Source of the DNA: Bacteroidales bacterium
GTDB taxonomy: Bacteria; Bacteroidota; Bacteroidia; Bacteroidales; P3
Length of the DNA stretch: 64,000 nt
NCBI GenBank assembly: GCA_031257915.1
Contig: JAIRNR010000003.1
Coordinates: 7,670 to 71,669 of the forward strand
Direction of reading: 5' to 3'
Part shown: one piece after another, positions 37,333-61,229 of the stretch
Layout: the number at the start of each line of letters is the position of its first letter
How positions within the stretch are numbered: position 1 is the stretch's first letter
Position numbers and translations under genes: made by a program
The notes under the pieces: model-generated
The model's input: the letters and a program-made list of their open reading frames with translations, nothing else
What the model was told of the DNA's origin: nothing
Database searches by the model: none

Positions 37333-37387
37333 TTGTAGTTGAAATTTCAAATAAAAACAAGTATCTTTGTATGAGATTTCAAATATT

Positions 37388-37708
37388 ATGGTGCAAAAGA
37401 ATGACACTTTTTCTTTACGTCTAAAAAAAATAATGCCTGAAGTTGGTGAGAATATTAAACTGGCACGGCTTCGGCGGGGGTTTTCTGCGGCACTTATAGC
37501 CGAGAGAGCAAACATAGCAACATCAACATTATGGCTAATTGAAAAGGGTAGCGGAAGCGTATCTTTTGGAAGTTACGCAAAAGTACTGTTTGTTCTCGGA
37601 TTAGAAAAAGATTTGCTGCACCTTGCAAAAGACGACATACTTGGAAGAAAATTGCAAGATGCAGAGATATTAACCAAAAAACGTGCGCCAAAACGAATGA
37701 TTGTATGA
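37388..37708 (+). CDS. XRE-family HTH regulator, HipB-like (orphan)
   Basis: VGENIKLARLRRGFSAALIAERANIATSTLWLIEKG is an HTH_3 motif. A TATCTTTG box lies about 25 nt upstream. Confidence 0.75.
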   Translation: MVQKNDTFSLRLKKIMPEVGENIKLARLRRGFSAALIAERANIATSTLWLIEKGSGSVSFGSYAKVLFVLGLEKDLLHLAKDDILGRKLQDAEILTKKRAPKRMIV

Positions 37709-37784: not shown

Positions 37785-38180
37785 TTACAGTAATTGCAGT
37801 CCGCTTATTCTCTTAAAATGATTTTTATTGAAAGTGACTATCGGTAAGTTACTATAGACAGCAGTAGTGGCAATAAATAAATCATTTAGTTCTATTATTT
37901 GGTTTGCTCTTTTCAGATTTTGATATATGTTTGCTGATAAGATTGCTATTTCAGAATTAAAAGGGATTTGTTTTATTATATTAAATAATGTGTCCCAAAA
38001 TTCTGTTTCCTGTTCATTTTTTATTCCATTAAATATTTCAAAAACGGTAATTGTAGAAATGGCAAGATTGTAATTGTCAATTAATTCTGTTAGCAAAGCT
38101 TTATCTTTATTTGACTTGCGGTAATAATCAATAAAGATGGAAGTATCTACGAGTATATCTTTGCTGTCCATCTTTTCCAC
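37785..38180 (-). CDS. vapC: PIN-domain toxin VapC
   Basis: ILVDTSIFIDY (Asp1), VFEIFNG (Glu), LNDLFIATTA (Asp), and a TFN tail. 131 aa. Confidence 0.85.
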   Translation of the reverse strand: MEKMDSKDILVDTSIFIDYYRKSNKDKALLTELIDNYNLAISTITVFEIFNGIKNEQETEFWDTLFNIIKQIPFNSEIAILSANIYQNLKRANQIIELNDLFIATTAVYSNLPIVTFNKNHFKRISGLQLL

Positions 38181-38419
38181 GCTTTTTGATTTTCTAAATA
38201 ATTAGCATATTGTTCATCAGACATAGTCGGACCTGATAATAACAATTCTTTTAATTTTATTTTTTTATTATCGGCACTTTTTTTATGCGCATAATTGTTC
38301 TGTATAAGACATTGTATATCTGCCAATATCCGTTGCTTATCAGTAATGGGCATATTGACAATAGCGTGCATTATTTGGTCGTAATTTAACGACGGTTGAT
38401 ATGGCGTTGTTGTTTTCAT
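38147..38419 (-). CDS. putative VapB-type antitoxin
   Basis: 90-aa ORF overlapping the vapC start. A TACCTTTG box lies upstream on the minus strand (about 38433-38440). Confidence 0.55.
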   Translation of the reverse strand: MKTTTPYQPSLNYDQIMHAIVNMPITDKQRILADIQCLIQNNYAHKKSADNKKIKLKELLLSGPTMSDEQYANYLENQKAWKRWTAKIYS

Positions 38420-39760: not shown

Positions 39761-40645
39761 ATGAATGTTTTAATAACAGGAAGTAAAGGGCAGTTGGGGA
39801 ATGAACTGCGGGTAATCACTGAAAAAAAAGTACAGGATAAATTCTTTTTTGAAGATATTGATACGCTTGATATTACTTCGGACAGTGCGGTGGATAATTA
39901 TTTTGCAGAACATAATATCGGTGCTGTTATCAACGGTGCCGCATATACTGCTGTGGATAAAGCCGAAAGTGATACTGTAAATGCGTACAAAGTGAATGAA
40001 TCGGGTGTGAGAGTGCTTTCAAAGACATGTTGTAAGTACAATGCTTTTATGCTGCATATTTCTACCGATTATGTTTTTGACGGTAATGCCGCAACACCTT
40101 ATACCGAAAGCGCGGCAACAAATCCGCAAAGTGTTTACGGTATGTCCAAACTTGCGGGTGAGAGAGCAATGATTGAAAGCGGTGTTAATGGTGCGATTGT
40201 ACGTACTTCATGGCTTTATTCTTCGTTTGGAAATAATTTTGTAAAAACGATGTTACGGTTAGCAAAGAATTGTGAAGTTAGCACTGACAGTGCAGCGATA
40301 AAAGTTGTTAATGACCAGACAGGCTCGCCTACTTATGCAGCTGATTTGGCTGATGTGTTGCTTCGGCTTTTGGCACAGCAATATGTGCAAAAGTGTAATG
40401 TGCAAAACGGTGTGGAAATCTATCATTATGCAAATAGCGGATATTGCAGTTGGGCTGAATTTGCTGCTGAAATAATGCGGTTAAGCCGTTCGCTATGCAG
40501 GGTGCTGCCCATAACTACTGCGGAATATCCGACTCTCGCTGCTCGTCCGAAATACAGTGTTCTCGACACATCTAAAATTAAAACAGCACTCGGCGTAGAA
40601 ATTCCTGTATGGCAAAACGCATTAGAGCGTATGCTCGGCAGATAA
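39761..40645 (+). CDS. rfbD: dTDP-4-dehydrorhamnose reductase
   Basis: MNVLITGSKGQLG, STDYVFDG, YGMSKLAGE (YxxxK), RTSWLYS. Confidence 0.92.
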   Translation: MNVLITGSKGQLGNELRVITEKKVQDKFFFEDIDTLDITSDSAVDNYFAEHNIGAVINGAAYTAVDKAESDTVNAYKVNESGVRVLSKTCCKYNAFMLHISTDYVFDGNAATPYTESAATNPQSVYGMSKLAGERAMIESGVNGAIVRTSWLYSSFGNNFVKTMLRLAKNCEVSTDSAAIKVVNDQTGSPTYAADLADVLLRLLAQQYVQKCNVQNGVEIYHYANSGYCSWAEFAAEIMRLSRSLCRVLPITTAEYPTLAARPKYSVLDTSKIKTALGVEIPVWQNALERMLGR

Positions 40646-41698
40646 AATTTGTTGATGCAGGCAAGTTAGAATATTATCGCGTTTTTCGTCCCAAAGGTGC
40701 ATTGCGCCTCCTTTGCAGTATTTATAATCTTTACAATTCAGACAACTGCCGGTACGTGTCCATTTGCGGTTCCGCATTATCTCAAACCGCTCATTCCACA
40801 CATCTGTAAAATTATCCCTGTAGATATTGCCTTGCACAAAAGCCCTGTCTATGTTCGGACAGGCAGATATGGAGCCATCTATAAGCACAGAGCCGATATT
40901 TATACCTGCACGGCAGAAGAAGCAATTATCGCGCACATTTCTTTCGTACTTTCCGACAAAACTTTCGCAGCTGAAAGTAGTACGCATCCGCTTATCTTTT
41001 CGTGCTTCATAAATAAAATTCATAAGATAGAGCACTTGTTCATTTGAAAGTTGCATATCATCATTTCCGAAAGCCCTGCCTATAGGTGCAATAGTAAAAA
41101 GCCGCCACTGCCTTACTTTATGTTCAAGTAAAAATTCTTTTAATGGTAAAAGTTCTTTAATATTTTTCTTATTTACACAAGTTACAACATCGTAATTTAA
41201 GCGGCCGCACGAAGCAATTAAATCAAGTGCCGTTACCGCATTTGCAAAACTTCGAGCATTATTACGAAGCCAGTTATGATTATCCGCAAGACCGTCCAAA
41301 CTTAATGTTACAGCCCCTATTCCGGCTGAAAGTAGCCGCCGGTGAATATCGGCATTATAGACATAACCGTTGGTAACAATCCCCCAGAGAAAACCGTTTT
41401 TACGCAATTCCGTTCCACATTCGGGCAAATCTTTTCTTAACAGCGGTTCGCCGCCTGTAATGGCTATAGTAATGGTGTCAGGCTTGCTGATTTTTTTCAG
41501 TGGTAAAATGGCGTTCAGAAAATCTTCAAAAGGCATATCTTTCACTTTGTAATCGGCAGCACAGTCAGATCCGCAGTGACGGCAATTTAAATTACATCTG
41601 CGGGTACATTCCCAAAATAGATAATTAAGTTCGTGAATTGCCCGTTCGTTGTTTACAAAAAAATTATTAAAACGAAGTGCTATCCTGTTCGATTTCAT
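40622..41698 (-). CDS. radical SAM enzyme with a C-terminal SPASM/twitch-like auxiliary-cluster domain
   Basis: CNLNCRHC (CxxxCxxC). A GGEPLL glycine-rich SAM motif. C-terminal CRAGINIGSVLIDGSISAC and CLNCKDYKYCKGGA (CX2CX5C; the usual 4th Cys position reads Ala). Confidence 0.85.
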   Translation of the reverse strand: MKSNRIALRFNNFFVNNERAIHELNYLFWECTRRCNLNCRHCGSDCAADYKVKDMPFEDFLNAILPLKKISKPDTITIAITGGEPLLRKDLPECGTELRKNGFLWGIVTNGYVYNADIHRRLLSAGIGAVTLSLDGLADNHNWLRNNARSFANAVTALDLIASCGRLNYDVVTCVNKKNIKELLPLKEFLLEHKVRQWRLFTIAPIGRAFGNDDMQLSNEQVLYLMNFIYEARKDKRMRTTFSCESFVGKYERNVRDNCFFCRAGINIGSVLIDGSISACPNIDRAFVQGNIYRDNFTDVWNERFEIMRNRKWTRTGSCLNCKDYKYCKGGAMHLWDEKRDNILTCLHQQILSAEHTL

Positions 41699-42134
41699 TT
41701 AGAACCACGTTAATATATACCTCGTCAGCCTCTTCAATTTCAACTGTTTTGTTCTCGTATAAACCGTTTTCCGTGCTGTCTATATCATCAAAGAAAACAG
41801 TCTCGCTCCATCCCCGTCCTTCAATTGATGTATTAAAAGAAAAATATCCGTGATTATCGGTAACTGTGCAACTGTCCGAATAACGGTTATAAGAAGTATC
41901 TCTTTGATAATAATATCCAAACGATACTTTTATCCCTTCTATGCCCCGATTATTTTTATTAGAAACAACTCTGCCTTCAACCAAAGCATTAGGAAAAGCG
42001 GCAGGCACTCCATAGCATGCCTGAAATATAAACATTGCAGTAGTTAAACTGAATCCTTTAAGCACATTGCTTATAATCTTTCTACATTTTTGTTTCACAC
42101 CGCTAATATACGAATTATTTTCGCAAAGCCTCAC
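41667..42134 (-). CDS. putative lipoprotein with a carboxypeptidase-regulatory-like beta-sandwich, partner of the radical SAM enzyme
   Basis: Lipobox FIFQAC. EGRVVSN..GIEGIKVS...TVTDNHGYFSF is CarboxypepD_reg-like. The real start may be the GTG at about 42098. Its 3' end overlaps the rSAM start by 32 nt. Confidence 0.6.
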   Translation of the reverse strand: MRLCENNSYISGVKQKCRKIISNVLKGFSLTTAMFIFQACYGVPAAFPNALVEGRVVSNKNNRGIEGIKVSFGYYYQRDTSYNRYSDSCTVTDNHGYFSFNTSIEGRGWSETVFFDDIDSTENGLYENKTVEIEEADEVYINVVLNEIEQDSTSF

Positions 42135-43404
42135 TCATAGAAATTCTTTTTCCGTTTTTAAATGCAACAACAAATGCATCACGAAACCCCTTTGCCTGAA
42201 TTTCCTGTAATAAATTCTTTGCTTGCGAAAGGTCTGTTTCCTCGCCGCTGCAATACTTGTAAACACCGTTTTCCTGATACTTGCTTATATTTTGCAGCAC
42301 ATTAAATTCGGGCGAGTTAAGCGGTTTATTTATAGATGACGAAGCGAATTGCACTTTGAAAATAATTGTTTCTGCGGCAGGTGTGGTTGCGGGCGCATTT
42401 GTAGTTTGGGCAGCAGGTGGGATTGTAGTTTGGGTCGCAGGTGGGGTTGCGGGTGCATTTGTAGTTTGGGCAGCAGGTGGGATTGTAGTTTGGGTCGCAG
42501 GTGGAGTTGTTGTCTGGGTCGCAGATGGAGTTGTGGTCTGGGTTGCAGGCGCAATTGTGGTCTGGGTAGCAGATGGGGTAGCAGATGAAATAGCAGAACT
42601 AACCCCCGCTTGATTTCCGAATCCTTCAACTTGATATTTATACTCCCTGAAAGCATTTAAAAGCGAAATTGCAATTTTGTCCTGTCCGTCGGCAGAACTT
42701 AAAAATTCTTCCTCTTCAGGATTGCTGATAAATCCGATTTCAGTAAGGACAGATGGCATCGTACACCCCCAAAGAACGACAAATCCTGCTTGAAAAACAC
42801 CGCGATTCGGCGTATTTAACAGAGTGCCGTACTGTTTTTGAATTTTTTGTGCAAAACTTAGACTTTGGTCTAAGTAGGCATTTTGGTACATTGAAAAAAT
42901 TATATAGGCATCGGGCGAATTGGGGTCGAAACCATTATAATTTTTTTCATAGTTTTGTTCTTCAAGAATAGCGGCATTTTCTTTTCGCGCGACATTTAAA
43001 TTCAAATCACTTTTGTGAAGCCCCATAACCCATGTTTCAACTCCACGCGTAGCAGTATTGTTTTCTACGGCATTGCAATGAATGGAAATAAATAAGTCGG
43101 CATTATTTCTGTTTGCAATTTTACTGCGTTCGCGCAGTTCTATATCCCTGTCATCCTTACGAGTATAAATAACCCGCACGTCTGAAAAGTTCTGCTGCAC
43201 GAGTGTACCGAATTTTAACGCAACTGCAAGCGCAATATCTTTTTCTTTACTCTTTTTTCCGACCGTACCCGGTTTATCACCTCCATGTCCTGCGTCAATT
43301 ACAAGCGTCTTAACGCTTTTCGTATTTTGAGAAAATCCGCATAAAGGCAATAATGCGAAAAAAATCAATCGAATAAAATATGTTTTCTTGAAAAAAAATT
43401 CCAT
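42115..43404 (-). CDS. N-acetylmuramoyl-L-alanine amidase (Amidase_3) with a Thr/Pro/Ala-rich linker and a C-terminal SPOR domain
   Basis: VIDAGHGGDKPGT, SIHCNA, ETWV. The C-terminal FKVQFASS...AKGFRDAFVVAFKNGKRI is SPOR-like. Confidence 0.9.
   Translation of the reverse strand: MEFFFKKTYFIRLIFFALLPLCGFSQNTKSVKTLVIDAGHGGDKPGTVGKKSKEKDIALAVALKFGTLVQQNFSDVRVIYTRKDDRDIELRERSKIANRNNADLFISIHCNAVENNTATRGVETWVMGLHKSDLNLNVARKENAAILEEQNYEKNYNGFDPNSPDAYIIFSMYQNAYLDQSLSFAQKIQKQYGTLLNTPNRGVFQAGFVVLWGCTMPSVLTEIGFISNPEEEEFLSSADGQDKIAISLLNAFREYKYQVEGFGNQAGVSSAISSATPSATQTTIAPATQTTTPSATQTTTPPATQTTIPPAAQTTNAPATPPATQTTIPPAAQTTNAPATTPAAETIIFKVQFASSSINKPLNSPEFNVLQNISKYQENGVYKYCSGEETDLSQAKNLLQEIQAKGFRDAFVVAFKNGKRISMSEALRK
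42375..42590 (-). repeat. in-frame tandem repeats encoding (P/A)PATQTT(I/T) units, including a ~60-bp perfect-looking duplication
   Basis: GCATTTGTAGTTTGGGCAGCAGGTGGGATTGTAGTTTGGGTCGCAGGTGG occurs twice in tandem (about 42395-42510). Confidence 0.85.
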
Positions 43405-43859
43405 ATATATACCAGTATCGTTGTTATAATTTTAGAATTCATATAGTATATGCCTAAGTAATCTGTGAAAATCCACATAAACAGACTGTTTAGTGCAAGT
43501 CCGATTGCGCCTATAATGCAAAAGATAATAAATTCTTTTTGCCGGCTGTAATTACCGTGCGAAGTAAAAATCCAGGTAATACTTAAAATGTAATTAAGTA
43601 CGGTACCTGTAAAAAATGCAGCTGTATTCGCTAAAAGGTAATGTATATCTGCGAGCTGTACAAGCAGGTAGAGTATAAGCATATCCGACAGTACGCACAC
43701 TCCGCCGACTAACATACCTCTTAAAAATTGAACAACGGTAAGATTTGTTCTGCGTACGATAAATATATCGTGAAACAGATCTTTTGTACTGCGCAATCGC
43801 AAACGTTCGTTCTCTTTACGGATAAAAAAGAAGTTACGGTATTCTTCAAATATACTCAT
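43365..43859 (-). CDS. GtrA-family membrane protein
   Basis: LVGGVCVLSDMLILYLLV...ANTAAFFTGTVLNYILSITWIFT is the GtrA pattern, with 4 TM segments. The ATG shares 1 nt with the dxs TAA (TAATG). Confidence 0.75.
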   Translation of the reverse strand: MSIFEEYRNFFFIRKENERLRLRSTKDLFHDIFIVRRTNLTVVQFLRGMLVGGVCVLSDMLILYLLVQLADIHYLLANTAAFFTGTVLNYILSITWIFTSHGNYSRQKEFIIFCIIGAIGLALNSLFMWIFTDYLGIYYMNSKIITTILVYIWNFFSRKHILFD

Positions 43860-45712
43860 TACAGCAAAGTTAAAATTTTTTCTGTTGTCAAGCCGCATTC
43901 TTTATATAATTCGCTAACCGCACCGTGTGTAATAAATCTGTCCGGAATACCGAGCGGAATAATATCTCCCTTATATTTCTGCAATGCTGCAAATTCGGAA
44001 ACAGCGGAAAAAAGACCACCTTTAAGCGTACCGTCTTCAATTGTTATAATACGTTTATGTTCGCCGAATATTTTATCAAGCAATACTTCGTCAAGAGGCT
44101 TCAGATAAGGCATATTATAAAGGGATATATGCTTACCCTTTGCAGCCTGCAATGCCATATTACCGATATGACCGATAGAAATAACCGCCGTATCGGTGTT
44201 TTTGCCGCCGTCATACACTTTAAAACCTTTGCCGACAGGTAATATTTCAAACGGTGTTTTCCAGTCGGTCATTACACCGCGGCCGCGCGGATAACGAATT
44301 GCAAACGGACCATCTTCATACAGGGAAGCAGTGTACATCAAATTACGCAGTTCCTGTTCATTCATTGGCGAAGCCACAACCATATTCGGTATCATACGCA
44401 TATACGCCAAATCAAATGTACCGTGATGTGTCGCGCCATCCTCGCCGACAAGTCCTGCCCTGTCAATACAAAATACAACAGGCAGTTTTTGAATTGCAAC
44501 GTCATGTATAATCTGATCAAAAGAACGCTGCAAAAATGATGAATAGATATTACAGAACGGCTTCATTCCCTCTACTGCAAGCCCTGCCGAAAATGTTACC
44601 GCATGACTTTCGGCAATACCAACGTCAAACACTCTTTCGGGAAATTCTTTCATCATCAGATTAAGTGAACATCCTGTCGGCATTGCAGGTGTTATGCCGA
44701 CAATATTTTTATTTTGTTCGGCAAGTTCAATAATTGTTTCACCGAAAACATCCTGATAGCGCGGTGTACCTGTATCACCTTTGTCCGAAAGCCTCTCGCC
44801 TGTTTCTCTGTCAAACTTTCCCGGTGCGTGATATGCAACGGGATTTGCCTCTGCATTTGGTAATCCCCTGCCTTTTGTGGTTATTATATGCAGCAGTTTC
44901 GGACCTTTTATTTGTGAAAGAGATTGTAAAACATCAACAAGATTTTCTACATTATGTCCGTCTATCGGTCCGAAATATCTGAAATTTAATGTTTCAAAAA
45001 GTTCACCTTTACGAAAGAAAAACGACTTTGTAGTGCGGCTGACTTTACTGAGAAAATCACGAAATACGGTGTTTTTTTCGGTTTTACCGCTTGTGATATT
45101 CCATACGCGGTTTTTAAAATAATTGTAGCGTGATGAGGCAGATATTTTTGTGAAATATTGATTAAGTGCGCCTGTTCCCTCGTCAATGGAAATGCCGTTG
45201 TCGTTAAGAATAACGAGCAGGTCGGCATTTGCCGCCCCTGCATTATTAAGTCCCTCAAACGCAAGTCCGCCTGTCATGGAACCGTCGCCGATTACCGCAA
45301 TATGTTTGCGGTCTGTTTCACCGCGCAGTGCGGATGCTATTGCCATACCAAGCGCGGCAGAGATGGAAATTGAAGCGTGTCCGCCGCCGAAAGCATCGTA
45401 CTCGCTTTCCGCCATAACAGGAAAGCCGCTTATACCGCCGTAAGTGCGGTGTGTTTTGAACGCTTCCGAACGTTCTGTTAGAATTTTATGCGCGTATGCC
45501 TGATGTCCTACATCCCAAATCAGTTTGTCGTAGGGAGTATTAAAAACGTAATGCAGTGCAACGGTGAGTTCCACAACTCCGAGCGAAGCCCCCAAATGTC
45601 CGGGGTGTTCCGCTACCTGATTGATAATATACTGTCTTACGCTATCGCAAACATTTTGCAATTCTTCAACAGGCAGTTTCCTTAGATCTTTTGGGGATGA
45701 TATAATACTCAT
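43859..45712 (-). CDS. dxs: 1-deoxy-D-xylulose-5-phosphate synthase
   Basis: GHLGASLGVVELTVALHYVF, the GDGSMTGGLAFEGLNNAG TPP motif, and transketolase-like C-terminal domains. Confidence 0.96.
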   Translation of the reverse strand: MSIISSPKDLRKLPVEELQNVCDSVRQYIINQVAEHPGHLGASLGVVELTVALHYVFNTPYDKLIWDVGHQAYAHKILTERSEAFKTHRTYGGISGFPVMAESEYDAFGGGHASISISAALGMAIASALRGETDRKHIAVIGDGSMTGGLAFEGLNNAGAANADLLVILNDNGISIDEGTGALNQYFTKISASSRYNYFKNRVWNITSGKTEKNTVFRDFLSKVSRTTKSFFFRKGELFETLNFRYFGPIDGHNVENLVDVLQSLSQIKGPKLLHIITTKGRGLPNAEANPVAYHAPGKFDRETGERLSDKGDTGTPRYQDVFGETIIELAEQNKNIVGITPAMPTGCSLNLMMKEFPERVFDVGIAESHAVTFSAGLAVEGMKPFCNIYSSFLQRSFDQIIHDVAIQKLPVVFCIDRAGLVGEDGATHHGTFDLAYMRMIPNMVVASPMNEQELRNLMYTASLYEDGPFAIRYPRGRGVMTDWKTPFEILPVGKGFKVYDGGKNTDTAVISIGHIGNMALQAAKGKHISLYNMPYLKPLDEVLLDKIFGEHKRIITIEDGTLKGGLFSAVSEFAALQKYKGDIIPLGIPDRFITHGAVSELYKECGLTTEKILTLL

Positions 45713-45713
45713 T

Positions 45714-45749
45714 GTAAAAAAACGGCAGGGTATATAACTACACCCTGCC
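45714..45749 (-). terminator. rho-independent terminator after gap
   Basis: The minus strand reads CGGCAGGGTGTAGTTATATACCCTGCCG followed by a T run (T6; the next three bases are ACA). Confidence 0.7.
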
Positions 45750-45772
45750 GATTATGAAGAAACAATCAAAAT

Positions 45773-60210: not shown

Positions 60211-60840
60211 ATGAAAACCATTACAATTTATAATGTCGCTTTTGCAGTAATCACTTTATTCACAGTGGCTGCGCCCGCGACAATAGCCGCTCAGAACAAC
60301 ACTGAGCAACAGACGGAAACTACTGCCGAAGTGCAGAAAAAAGCGATAAGTCTGACTAACATACATGAAGTAAATATTTCTTACGGCGACTGTTTTTTTG
60401 CGAACGATGTTCTTCTCCCTTATAATTACACCACTTTTGGTATTTTTTCGGTAACATATCAATATCATTTAAAAAAATGGCTTAGTGTCGGTGCAACGCT
60501 TTCTTATATTCCGTCCCACAAAGAACATTACAAAACAATATACGATAATACCGGTGGTGATGATTTTTTAATCAATGACGAACACACAACTCTTTACAGA
60601 AATAACCTTTCGTTTGCAACCGACATAAGATTTTATTTTTATAATAATGGTTTAATACGTATGTATGGTGGAGTTGCTTTAGGCTATATGTTTGAATTTT
60701 CCAAAGATGATTTTAAAAGCAACATATTTTTTCAGCCCACATTTTTCGGCTTTTCAGTTGGAAAGAAATTTGTGTTTGGTTGCGAAGTAGGGTGTGGTTT
60801 AAAAGGTATTTTTAACACTTACATCGGATATAAATTTTGA
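60211..60840 (+). CDS. small outer-membrane beta-barrel protein
   Basis: Signal peptide, alternating strands, and a terminal ...YIGYKF. Confidence 0.6.
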   Translation: MKTITIYNVAFAVITLFTVAAPATIAAQNNTEQQTETTAEVQKKAISLTNIHEVNISYGDCFFANDVLLPYNYTTFGIFSVTYQYHLKKWLSVGATLSYIPSHKEHYKTIYDNTGGDDFLINDEHTTLYRNNLSFATDIRFYFYNNGLIRMYGGVALGYMFEFSKDDFKSNIFFQPTFFGFSVGKKFVFGCEVGCGLKGIFNTYIGYKF

Positions 60841-60842
60841 AT

Positions 60843-61229
60843 ATGAAACAAATATCAATACAAGGCATATTTTTATTTATATGCGCTCTGTTTGCATTTC
60901 AATCATGCAGTAAAAAATTGCTTTTAAGCGGTACGGTTACTTCGGCTGATAACGGACAGAGAATAAAAGGGATAAAAGTATCTATGATAAAGCCGTCATT
61001 GCTATATGCATCAGACACATTCTATAAGACCGAAGGATGGGATCATGTTATTACGAACAATAAAGGCGAATTTTCTTTTGACGTATGGTATGAAACATCT
61101 TATGGCTGGGTATTTTTTGAAGATATTGACAGCATGGAAAACGGCTTTTATAAAAACAAAAGCGTAAGAATAGGAATTACTTCGCAGAACGAAATAGAAG
61201 TTAATATCAAGCTTGACAAAGTCAAGTAA
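60843..61229 (+). CDS. putative lipoprotein, paralogue of the rSAM-associated lipoprotein at 41667-42134
   Basis: Lipobox FQSC. SGTVTSADNGQRIKGIKVS, ITNNKGEFSF and FFEDIDSMENGFYKNKSV align with EGRVVSNKNNRGIEGIKVS, TVTDNHGYFSF and FFDDIDSTENGLYENKTV. Confidence 0.6.
   Translation: MKQISIQGIFLFICALFAFQSCSKKLLLSGTVTSADNGQRIKGIKVSMIKPSLLYASDTFYKTEGWDHVITNNKGEFSFDVWYETSYGWVFFEDIDSMENGFYKNKSVRIGITSQNEIEVNIKLDKVK

Follow-up and report, generated by a model that had tools for sequence, protein, structure and literature searches.

A 64,000-nucleotide stretch of DNA from a Bacteroidales bacterium (contig JAIRNR010000003.1; the whole stretch is called the window here) encodes a radical S-adenosylmethionine (SAM)/SPASM enzyme whose gene follows and overlaps that of a small lipoprotein. 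We propose that this TIGR04133-family enzyme is probably a cytoplasmic, YG-directed maturase of the pre-lipoprotein, binary in make-up and similar in kind to the spliceases. The proposal is made because the partner carries an X-Tyr-Gly motif, which is the site at which spliceases act, because the enzyme is homologous to the TIGR04103 family and because a predicted helix precedes the site. It is likely, in our judgement, that the lipoprotein is the substrate and the YG region the site, taken as one claim. Tyramine splicing as the chemistry, argued from analogy, falls slightly short of an even chance. The fullest form of the model is offered tentatively and is rather doubtful as a whole: the signal peptide would double as a leader of the type found in peptides that are made by ribosomes and then modified post-translationally (RiPPs), tyramine would be excised from Cys-Tyr-Gly in the cytoplasm, and a lipid-anchored ketoamide would be displayed after export. 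This ketoamide would be carried by a small sandwich domain or by an acidic lipopeptide of ~30 residues, either at the acylated N-terminal Cys or a few residues away.

The two window proteins are a catalogued, uncharacterised pair, the TIGR04133/TIGR04134 system. Against TIGR04133 (rSAM_w_lipo) the enzyme scores 457.7 bits (cutoff 425, E 2.2e-137), and the match runs over residues 4-351, equivalent to profile positions 3-349 of 350. The partner passes TIGR04134 (lipo_with_rSAM) marginally, with 40.7 bits for a cutoff of 39.8 (E 2.3e-10). The initial annotation, made from the sequence alone, had pointed to TIGRFAMs entries for a radical SAM enzyme with a lipoprotein and had called for a profile search; the entries exist, and both proteins lie above the curated cutoffs, far more than chance would produce. 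In gene order, adjacency and taxa we find no difference between the window and the pair as catalogued in NCBIfam and, under the label 'rSAM/lipoprotein system', in IMG. Both models are labelled 'hypothetical equivalogs', with no assigned function. The pair is laid out as follows.

40622..41698, minus strand: gene of the radical SAM/SPASM enzyme, 358 aa, TIGR04133 family (from the open reading frame (ORF) list and the profile search)
41667..42134, minus strand: gene of the partner pre-lipoprotein, 155 aa from the GTG at 42134, TIGR04134-type
41667..41698, minus strand: overlap of the partner 3' end with the radical SAM 5' end, 32 nt
42018..42098, minus strand: signal peptide of the partner, with n-region KQKCRK, h-region IISNVLKGFSLTTAMFIF and lipobox FQA/C; candidate leader or recognition helix
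42003..42017, minus strand: C-Y-G-V-P, comprising lipobox Cys28, invariant Tyr29-Gly30 and Pro32; proposed modification (splice) site
41700..41990, minus strand: transthyretin/carboxypeptidase-regulatory-like beta-sandwich, seven predicted strands, pLDDT mostly >90
41763..41786, minus strand: D-I-D-S-T-E-N-G loop (D105-x-D107-x3-N111-G112), conserved in long partners; the target favoured by the initial annotation

An alternative in-frame GTG start at 42098 would give a partner of 143 aa, and a homolog 94% identical to the window partner (P0001) has 146 aa. The 32-nt overlap had been read correctly from the sequence, as the ORF list confirms, and the same -32 junction recurs in locus L002.

How constant is the pairing? 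A genome scan (8 loci) and an alignment-based metagenome scan together gave 87 loci with a family member, and 76 of them have enough upstream DNA to be assessed. At 75 of these 76 there is, upstream, a small gene on the same strand whose product has a signal peptide, a Cys and Y-G; the sole exception, L006, has a 5'-truncated radical SAM gene. Looked up from the partner side, the radical SAM gene lies immediately downstream in 4/4 cases. A co-occurrence check had been suggested for what was taken to be a real radical SAM/SPASM and lipoprotein pair, and near-universal adjacency together with family membership bears this out. The two genes mostly abut or overlap at stop and start: junction gaps of 0, -11, -4, -1 and +1 nt make up 47 of the 74 tabulated, a tabulation in which a few partner picks have since been corrected. 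In the neighbourhoods examined we found no third conserved biosynthetic, transport or Y-like gene near the pair. The genes that flank it differ in every lineage, which argues that the pair is a self-contained cassette. Bacteroidales of guts, digesters and sediments commonly have it, and so do Treponema; among the carriers are Parabacteroides distasonis, Phocaeicola massiliensis, Treponema saccharophilum and Draconibacterium spp. At E < 1e-30 the enzyme has over 7,500 matching database clusters, an upper bound since other SPASM families also pass this threshold.

The partner is predicted to be lipidated on its lipobox Cys, given the charged n-region, the hydrophobic h-region and F-Q-A-C. Translated in all six frames, the whole window has no other match to the pattern [AGS]C-x(0-20)-YGxP than the C-Y-G-V-P that begins with this Cys. 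Two alignments, of 32 and of 53 diverse partners (26-27% mean identity), have Y29, G30, G42 and G84 as invariant columns, while D105 is invariant among the 53 and nearly so among the 32. Y-G is present in all 123 partner-family database matches examined (123/123), and Pro occupies position +3 in 68 of 81 motif instances, while residue X at -1 varies between C, E, M, D, L and K and the residue at +2 between T, P, M, V and S. Two arrangements recur. Type A partners (the window and most Bacteroidales) read F-[VI]-F-Q-A-C-Y-G-[TMV]-P, with F-x-F-Q-A-C nearly invariant; type B partners carry [EM]-Y-G-x-P 2-17 residues after the lipobox Cys, as in SSCSKPDPVAEYGVPSAKF, LTACPPVFWGGMYGPGPD and, in P. 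distasonis, FSCGENGEIPCEYGSPHANF. Some partners have two copies of the motif (L014, MYGMPAEYGMP; L038, LYGPPTEVLYGPPT; L070; L083). Conservation extends upstream of the site: when divergent partners are compared, identity is 53% over the 16 residues that precede the Cys and 33% over the mature region.

The rest of the mature protein is less constant. In the AlphaFold2 (AF2) prediction for the partner, residues 5-29 form a helix, 30-36 (YGVPAAF) a linker of lower confidence and 37-133 a confident seven-strand sandwich. The carboxypeptidase-regulatory-like sandwich named by the initial annotation is thus upheld by the model, whose fold matches in the PDB are transthyretin-like domains; in Pfam there is a weak match to DUF6795. 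Seven partners are only 58-75 aa long and consist of a signal peptide, the lipobox Cys, YGxP and an acidic tail, with no sandwich. They include L012, L021, L037, L047, L050 and L095, the last from a Treponema metagenome-assembled genome, where the sequence reads MKKLSEKGRKLLRNVLLTLGAGAVSLIFAACYGMPVDWEEDPYQDD... The sandwich domain is therefore dispensable. In L007, a distant member from outside Bacteroidota (39% identity), the partner is a membrane protein with no lipobox that keeps PDYGVRPMYG. Real partner diversity is only partly covered by the TIGR04134 model: L071 scores 107 bits, L093 22.9 and L010 14.7, and the short partners do not score at all.

Further arrangements were seen around the pair. 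Tandem partner genes precede a single radical SAM gene in L038 (4433-5007), L041 (4252-5001), L042 (1409-2020) and L070 (758-2150), and also in L010 (4402-5011) and L011 (1874-2453); often one is a short acidic form and the other a sandwich form, and several have two YGxP motifs each. Two homologs of the window partner, P0002 (81% identical) and P0003 (75%), each lie on a 9,146-nt contig, possibly the same one, and may be such a tandem pair. In one lipoprotein that resembles the partners, P0257, MYGPPMP stands in a loop inserted within the sandwich and not beside the lipobox, which is consistent with a portable Y-G site. At L099 (3405-4199) and L100 (3432-4542) the radical SAM gene after an intact partner was called as shortened or split, either a frameshifted pseudogene or an assembly error. 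One subclade (L018, L029, L093, L094) has a three-gene variant, in which a single gene for a small barrel resembling an outer-membrane protein (OMP) stands between partner and enzyme:

L018 180-1266; L029 235-1256; L093 4977-7077; L094: partner, OMP-like barrel gene, radical SAM gene

The window itself holds a natural control, a second lipoprotein of the family that lies apart from any radical SAM gene and directly after a barrel gene.

60837..61229, plus strand: paralog of the partner lipoprotein (tblastn E 2.5e-17), lipobox AFQSC in AFQSCSKKLL..., no Y-G after the Cys
60211..60840, plus strand: small OMP-like beta-barrel protein, 209 aa, ending ...GIFNTYIGYKF; 4-nt overlap with the paralog downstream

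The paralog has no adjacent radical SAM gene and keeps the lipobox, the sandwich and the D-x-D-x3-N-G segment, the latter as FEDIDSMENGFY. It scores 36.6 bits against TIGR04134, just under the cutoff of 39.8; that a YG-less protein comes so near a true partner indicates that the model tracks the sandwich and not the element linked to the radical SAM enzyme. As judged from these sequences, that element is the Y-G beside the lipobox Cys. A search of the full representative library found no other close relative without YG, only the paralog itself and YG-bearing partner types. The window barrel is 29% identical (E 3e-11) to the product of L093 5423-5998, the gene between partner and enzyme there, which suggests a functional link between the partner family and a small outer-membrane barrel. 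Homologs of the same barrel are the inserted genes of L093, L018, L029 and L031.

Turning to the enzyme, Pfam finds Radical_SAM (PF04055, 67.3 bits, cutoff 29.5) and SPASM (PF13186, 29.1 bits, cutoff 21.5). The CX3CX2C motif is thus combined with a C-terminal SPASM region above the Pfam threshold, as expected of the SPASM class.

41573..41596, minus strand: CX3CX2C radical SAM cluster motif, CNLNCRHC (C35 NLN C39 RH C42), inside the conserved block WECTxRCNLxCxHCGSDC
40661..40969, minus strand: SPASM region, with C244, C262...G275-x4-C280, C319-x2-C322-x5-C328-x3-A332, H334 and C346
40703..40744, minus strand: CLNCKDYKYCKGGA, CX2CX5C (C319, C322, C328) and then Ala (A332) at the canonical position of the fourth Cys

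The Cys motifs that the initial annotation had picked out (CNLNCRHC, CRAG...GSISAC and the last of these features) are all there, CRAG...GSISAC being C262...C280. In alignments of 25 and 48 members the CX3CX2C motif is invariant throughout, and the invariant or nearly invariant residues comprise C35/C39/C42, C46, C174, C244, C262, C280, C319, C322, C328 and C346. The full seven-Cys SPASM motif, CX9-15GX4C...CX2CX5CX3C...C, is broken in the window enzyme by A332. This Ala in place of the final Cys of CX2CX5CX3C had been pointed out for the window; it is real and is a trait of the family, not a peculiarity of the locus, as no Cys occurs at that position in any of the 25 or 48 aligned members and most have Ala. 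His334, two residues past A332, is invariant in both alignments. The AF2 model, a confident one (pLDDT 84.3, pTM 0.85), has a partial TIM barrel and the SPASM region. A helix of lower confidence at the N terminus leads up to the first confident core strand, which starts at about residue 26, and neither in the sequence nor in the model is an N-terminal RiPP recognition element (RRE) evident. Neither by sequence nor by fold did we find a close characterised homolog in the PDB, only remote, generic SPASM/twitch relatives (SkfB, SuiB, BlsE, MoaA, PqqE, GDGT-MAS and anSME; best E ~1e-15, TM-score ~0.6), and these neighbours gave no information on chemistry.

Why compare the enzyme with spliceases? 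Spliceases are radical SAM/SPASM enzymes that react at X-Y-G (PMC11414181; PMC11626197; PMC9811515; PMC11002830; PMC10849128). PlpX, RcsX and RasX cut out the equivalent of tyramine (C8H9NO, -135.06 Da) and link the carbonyl of residue X to what was the Tyr carbonyl, so that an electrophilic alpha-keto-beta-amino acid remains. An invariant Gly directly after the Tyr is the hallmark of the splice site (PMC11414181; PMC9811515), and validated or engineered sites look like that of the window, namely AAMYGVVFP and the tag PIRPGYGLPI. Type I spliceases depend on an RRE-like Y protein. The remaining types are binary, with an alpha-helix in the leader of the precursor that binds to the enzyme and activates it (PMC11414181; PMC11626197). 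The window system shares with tyramine spliceases (PlpXY and PcpXY of type I; RhaX, RcsX and RasX of the binary type II) a radical SAM domain with SPASM, a precursor encoded directly upstream, an X-Y-G target that is often followed by x-P, the possibility of multiple sites, and a predicted helix before the site; with the binary enzymes it also shares the lack of an RRE protein. An adjacent precursor with a conserved X-Y-G, as expected for a splicease, is present in the form of C-Y-G-V-P. Unlike the spliceases, the window system has as candidate leader a Sec/lipoprotein signal peptide in place of a Nif11- or NHLP-type RiPP precursor, and a predicted lipid-anchored product; X is usually the predicted lipidated Cys, SPASM lacks the fourth Cys and the TIGR04103 score is below cutoff.

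The sequence comparison was made through a proxy, a Nostoc plasmid locus found with a PlpA3 tblastn query and not an assayed splicease. This locus encodes a PlpA3-like Nif11 precursor (core ALYGLPPELF), a radical SAM maturase and a 71-aa Y-like ORF. The maturase is a 'nif11-class peptide radical SAM maturase 3' (TIGR04103, 853 bits), a family whose InterPro counterpart we take to be IPR026482. PlpX has been assigned to IPR026482 (PMC11002830). The window enzyme shows full-length homology to the Nostoc enzyme, with 27% identity across residues 22-358 (E 1e-38), and TIGR04103 is its best non-self family, by a narrow lead and with 115.5 bits, far under the cutoff of 725; by that threshold it lies outside the splicease family. 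Common to both enzymes are the residues W29, E30, H41, G43 and S44 and the patterns WExT..CNLxCxHCGS, SxDG...H, G-x-YE...RD, CxAG, DG....CP and CxxCx5CxG...H. Where the window enzyme has CLNCKDYKYCKGGA, the Nostoc enzyme has CKTCKFAELCRGGC, which corresponds to a three-residue deletion in the window family.

Two other systems are instructive. The first is anSME (TIGR03942), a SPASM enzyme of similar size with no RRE. It modifies a short Pro-containing motif of a Sec-exported protein, in Bacteroides often a lipidated one, in the cytoplasm before export, and it thereby provides a precedent for a SPASM enzyme that acts on exported (lipo)proteins ahead of their export. Unlike the window enzyme, it recognises C/S-x-P/A-x-R, oxidises C-beta to formylglycine, has fully Cys-ligated auxiliary clusters, is not encoded beside its substrates and is distant in sequence (E 2e-11 with the family profile). 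The second is TIGR03913, the 'GDL motif peptide-associated' radical SAM/SPASM family, a sister of TIGR04103 (the Nostoc enzyme scores 414.5 bits against it) with a remote relation to the window enzyme (27% identity). In its tandem small partners (DUF1843) a Tyr-Gly/Ala/Met motif stands close to the N terminus (LYG, PYG, MYA); unlike the window partner, they are cytoplasmic-looking helical peptides with no signal peptide. At L104 (1537-3931; Azospirillum lipoferum plasmid) and L105 (1653-3856; Aureibacter tunicatorum) a TIGR03913-type enzyme follows three tandem DUF1843 peptides with the motifs MLYGGAM, KPYGVAI, VLYAAGI and QPYGAGI. From these motifs, TIGR03913/DUF1843 may be another Tyr-directed system; our literature search found no report of a function for either.

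How might the pair work? The enzyme and its partner would be translated together, and the enzyme would bind the precursor before it enters the Sec pathway, with the conserved signal-peptide helix probably serving as leader and activating helix. A 5'-deoxyadenosyl radical would then attack the Tyr of the YG motif, at an X-Tyr-Gly(-x-Pro) that stands directly at the lipobox Cys or within ~20 residues after it. After that the modified precursor would be exported, receive its lipid on the Cys and be cut by signal peptidase II. If splicing takes place at C-Y-G-V-P, the alpha-keto-beta-amino acid would derive from the lipid-anchor Cys itself. Spliceotide products inhibit Ser/Cys proteases (PMC11414181; PMC11626197; PMC9811515; PMC11002830). 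The product here would be a membrane-tethered ketoamide, plausibly a reversible covalent Ser/Cys protease inhibitor or a reactive handle. Besides the near-constant pairing, the better-conserved signal peptide, the likeness to known splice sites, the TIGR04103 homology and the lack of an evident RRE, two observations favour a YG-directed, splicease-like maturase: Y29 and G30 lie side by side in the lower-confidence linker between the signal-peptide helix and the sandwich, and Y-G is retained in short, repeated-site, tandem and lipobox-less (L007) partners and is absent from the paralog that has no radical SAM gene.

Several points weigh against this proposal, which for the TIGR04133 family draws on sequence and analogy. 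The models for NirJ2 (111.3 bits) and AhbD (108.8 bits) score nearly as high on the window enzyme as the 115.5 bits of TIGR04103, and the Nostoc enzyme scores 152.0 bits with TIGR04133, about the same as with AhbD (154.1), and 414.5 with TIGR03913. That enzyme also has the fourth SPASM Cys that is absent here, and it lacks C244, which is nearly invariant here. Most partners bear a single YG, unlike the YG-rich precursors that have been used to mine spliceases (PMC10849128). For type A partners, we found no precedent for an X that is a Cys later to be lipidated. Many partners of type B have Glu or Asp as X, and one DYG site in RcsA is reported to be unmodified (PMC11626197). The three-gene variants have no Pro at +3 (CYGVW, CYGMV, CYGME). 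Finally, the YG-less natural control is a single, rare paralog.

The enzyme could act on the same substrate and the same site by another radical chemistry that does not splice the backbone, which we hold to be unlikely while giving it real weight. Possibilities are a three-residue cyclophane that joins the Tyr ring to C-beta of the residue at +2, as in triceptides, a Cys/Glu-Tyr crosslink, beta-oxidation of the Tyr, or epimerisation. All of the YG-site evidence fits such chemistry equally well. Spliceases are no nearer to the enzyme than other SPASM families are, its structural neighbours at TM-score ~0.6 include the crosslinking SkfB, SuiB and PqqE, and the unusual set of auxiliary-cluster ligands, with no fourth Cys and an invariant His334, leaves room for it. 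However, SPASM enzymes that crosslink RiPPs mostly have an RRE, and no such element is evident in the window enzyme. To our knowledge, a Gly after the Tyr is not required for crosslinks of the triceptide or ryptide type. The invariant Gly right after the Tyr, a splice-site hallmark (PMC11414181; PMC9811515), speaks against non-splicing chemistry, as does the wide variation at -1 and +2, where the would-be crosslink partners lie.

It is improbable, in our view, that the lipoprotein is not a substrate at all. The enzyme would in that case make or modify a small molecule, cofactor or lipid, and the lipoprotein would bind, carry or use the product in the envelope, possibly together with the OMP-like barrel. 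The relatives AhbD/NirJ, BlsE, MoaA and GDGT-MAS do act on small molecules, cofactors or lipids; the scores with the AhbD and NirJ2 models come close to that with the splicease model, and the best PDB sequence matches are BlsE (nucleoside sugar) and GDGT-MAS (lipids). Enzyme and partner would also end in different compartments, and an OMP-like gene lies within the operon in some lineages and beside the paralog in the window. On the other hand, the 58-75 aa partners have no fold able to bind anything, the surroundings of the pair have no other conserved gene for biosynthesis or transport, and the signal peptide is conserved beyond the needs of export. The universal residues of the partner, besides two structural Gly and one Asp, are a Y-G in a flexible linker.

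The initial annotation had placed a thioether, C-C crosslink, epimerisation or methylation in an acidic C-terminal segment, FFDDIDSTENGLYENK, near DIDSTENGLY, and D105, D107, N111 and G112, contained in FFDDIDSTENGLY, are indeed invariant or nearly so in long partners; this target is nonetheless very improbable because the segment is no free tail and forms strands and a loop that are buried inside the predicted sandwich, does not occur in the short partners of 58-75 aa that are still paired with the enzyme, and is kept in the paralog that has no radical SAM gene. Within the domain family, the D105...G112 loop appears to serve structure or metal binding.

Other candidates were rejected. YG as part of a Bacteroidetes surface-export signal was discarded, since it lacks acidic character and, in type B partners, stands far from the Cys. 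Nor does it suit a glycyl-radical site, for which the context, RVxG[FWY], is wrong. A conserved third gene was set aside, the neighbourhoods differing in every lineage.

The surroundings of the pair in the window are as follows. Downstream it meets a convergent gene:

39761..40645, plus strand: rmlD (TIGR01214, 296.6 bits), convergent with the radical SAM gene

The 3' ends of the two genes overlap by 24 nt (40622-40645), as had been described earlier under the name rfbD. Upstream of the partner lies an N-acetylmuramoyl-L-alanine amidase gene (42115..43404, minus strand; Amidase_3, 172 bits), whose stop overlaps the longest partner ORF by 20 nt and whose Thr/Pro/Ala/Gln-rich linker (ATQTTTPSATQTTTPPATQTT...) is encoded by tandem repeats of 24, 48 and 60 nt at 42377..42576. 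From 40622 to 45712 the minus strand carries dxs, a GtrA-like gene, the amidase, the partner and the radical SAM gene with overlapping or near-touching ends, the overlaps at dxs/GtrA and at GtrA/amidase being ~40 nt, and transcription of the upstream genes may read through into the pair. At 45723-45750, downstream of gapA and upstream of dxs, there is a strong hairpin that resembles a terminator. These neighbours (dxs, GtrA-like, amidase) are not conserved at other loci. Farther away (37785..38419, minus strand) there is a VapBC-like toxin-antitoxin arrangement, in which the gene of a 131-aa PIN-domain protein (PF01850, E 1.8e-16) and an ORF of 90 aa upstream of it share 34 nt. Beside it a small HTH protein (37367..37708, plus strand) is encoded, among genes for nucleotide sugars (UDP-glucose dehydrogenase, NAD-dependent epimerase/dehydratase, rmlD).

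What is new here? The pair itself is already known, as TIGRFAMs/NCBIfam models and as the IMG 'rSAM/lipoprotein system'. In agreement with the initial annotation, which knew of no chemistry or function for it, we found no published chemistry for the TIGR04133/TIGR04134 pair in the literature, a search outside of which lay the splicease-mining survey by Scott et al. (Chem 2022). The pair is not mentioned in the TIGRFAMs 2013 paper. Searched by model number, TIGR04133 and TIGR04103 returned no literature, and the lone mention of TIGR04134 is a typographical error for the model of a type IX secretion system (T9SS) type B C-terminal domain. Within this scope, the invariant YG beside the lipid anchor, the short lipopeptide-type partners, the OMP-containing variants and the connection to spliceases appear to be new. 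The survey outside our search is said to have mined all radical SAM-SPASM neighbourhoods for YG motifs.

If the proposal is true, this would apparently be the first ribosomal beta-amino acid or ketoamide in a bacterial lipoprotein, as far as we could find, and it would be present across Bacteroidales, including the human gut species Parabacteroides distasonis and Phocaeicola massiliensis, and in Treponema. Even some other modification at this site would define the chemistry of a large orphan SPASM family with unusual auxiliary-cluster ligands. Splicing would extend ribosomal beta-amino acid chemistry from secreted RiPPs to envelope lipoproteins, and a Sec signal peptide would be acting as the leader for a maturase. 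Prominent gut commensals would then carry membrane-anchored electrophilic proteins, which would bear on the control of proteases between host and microbe and on splice tags for protein engineering.

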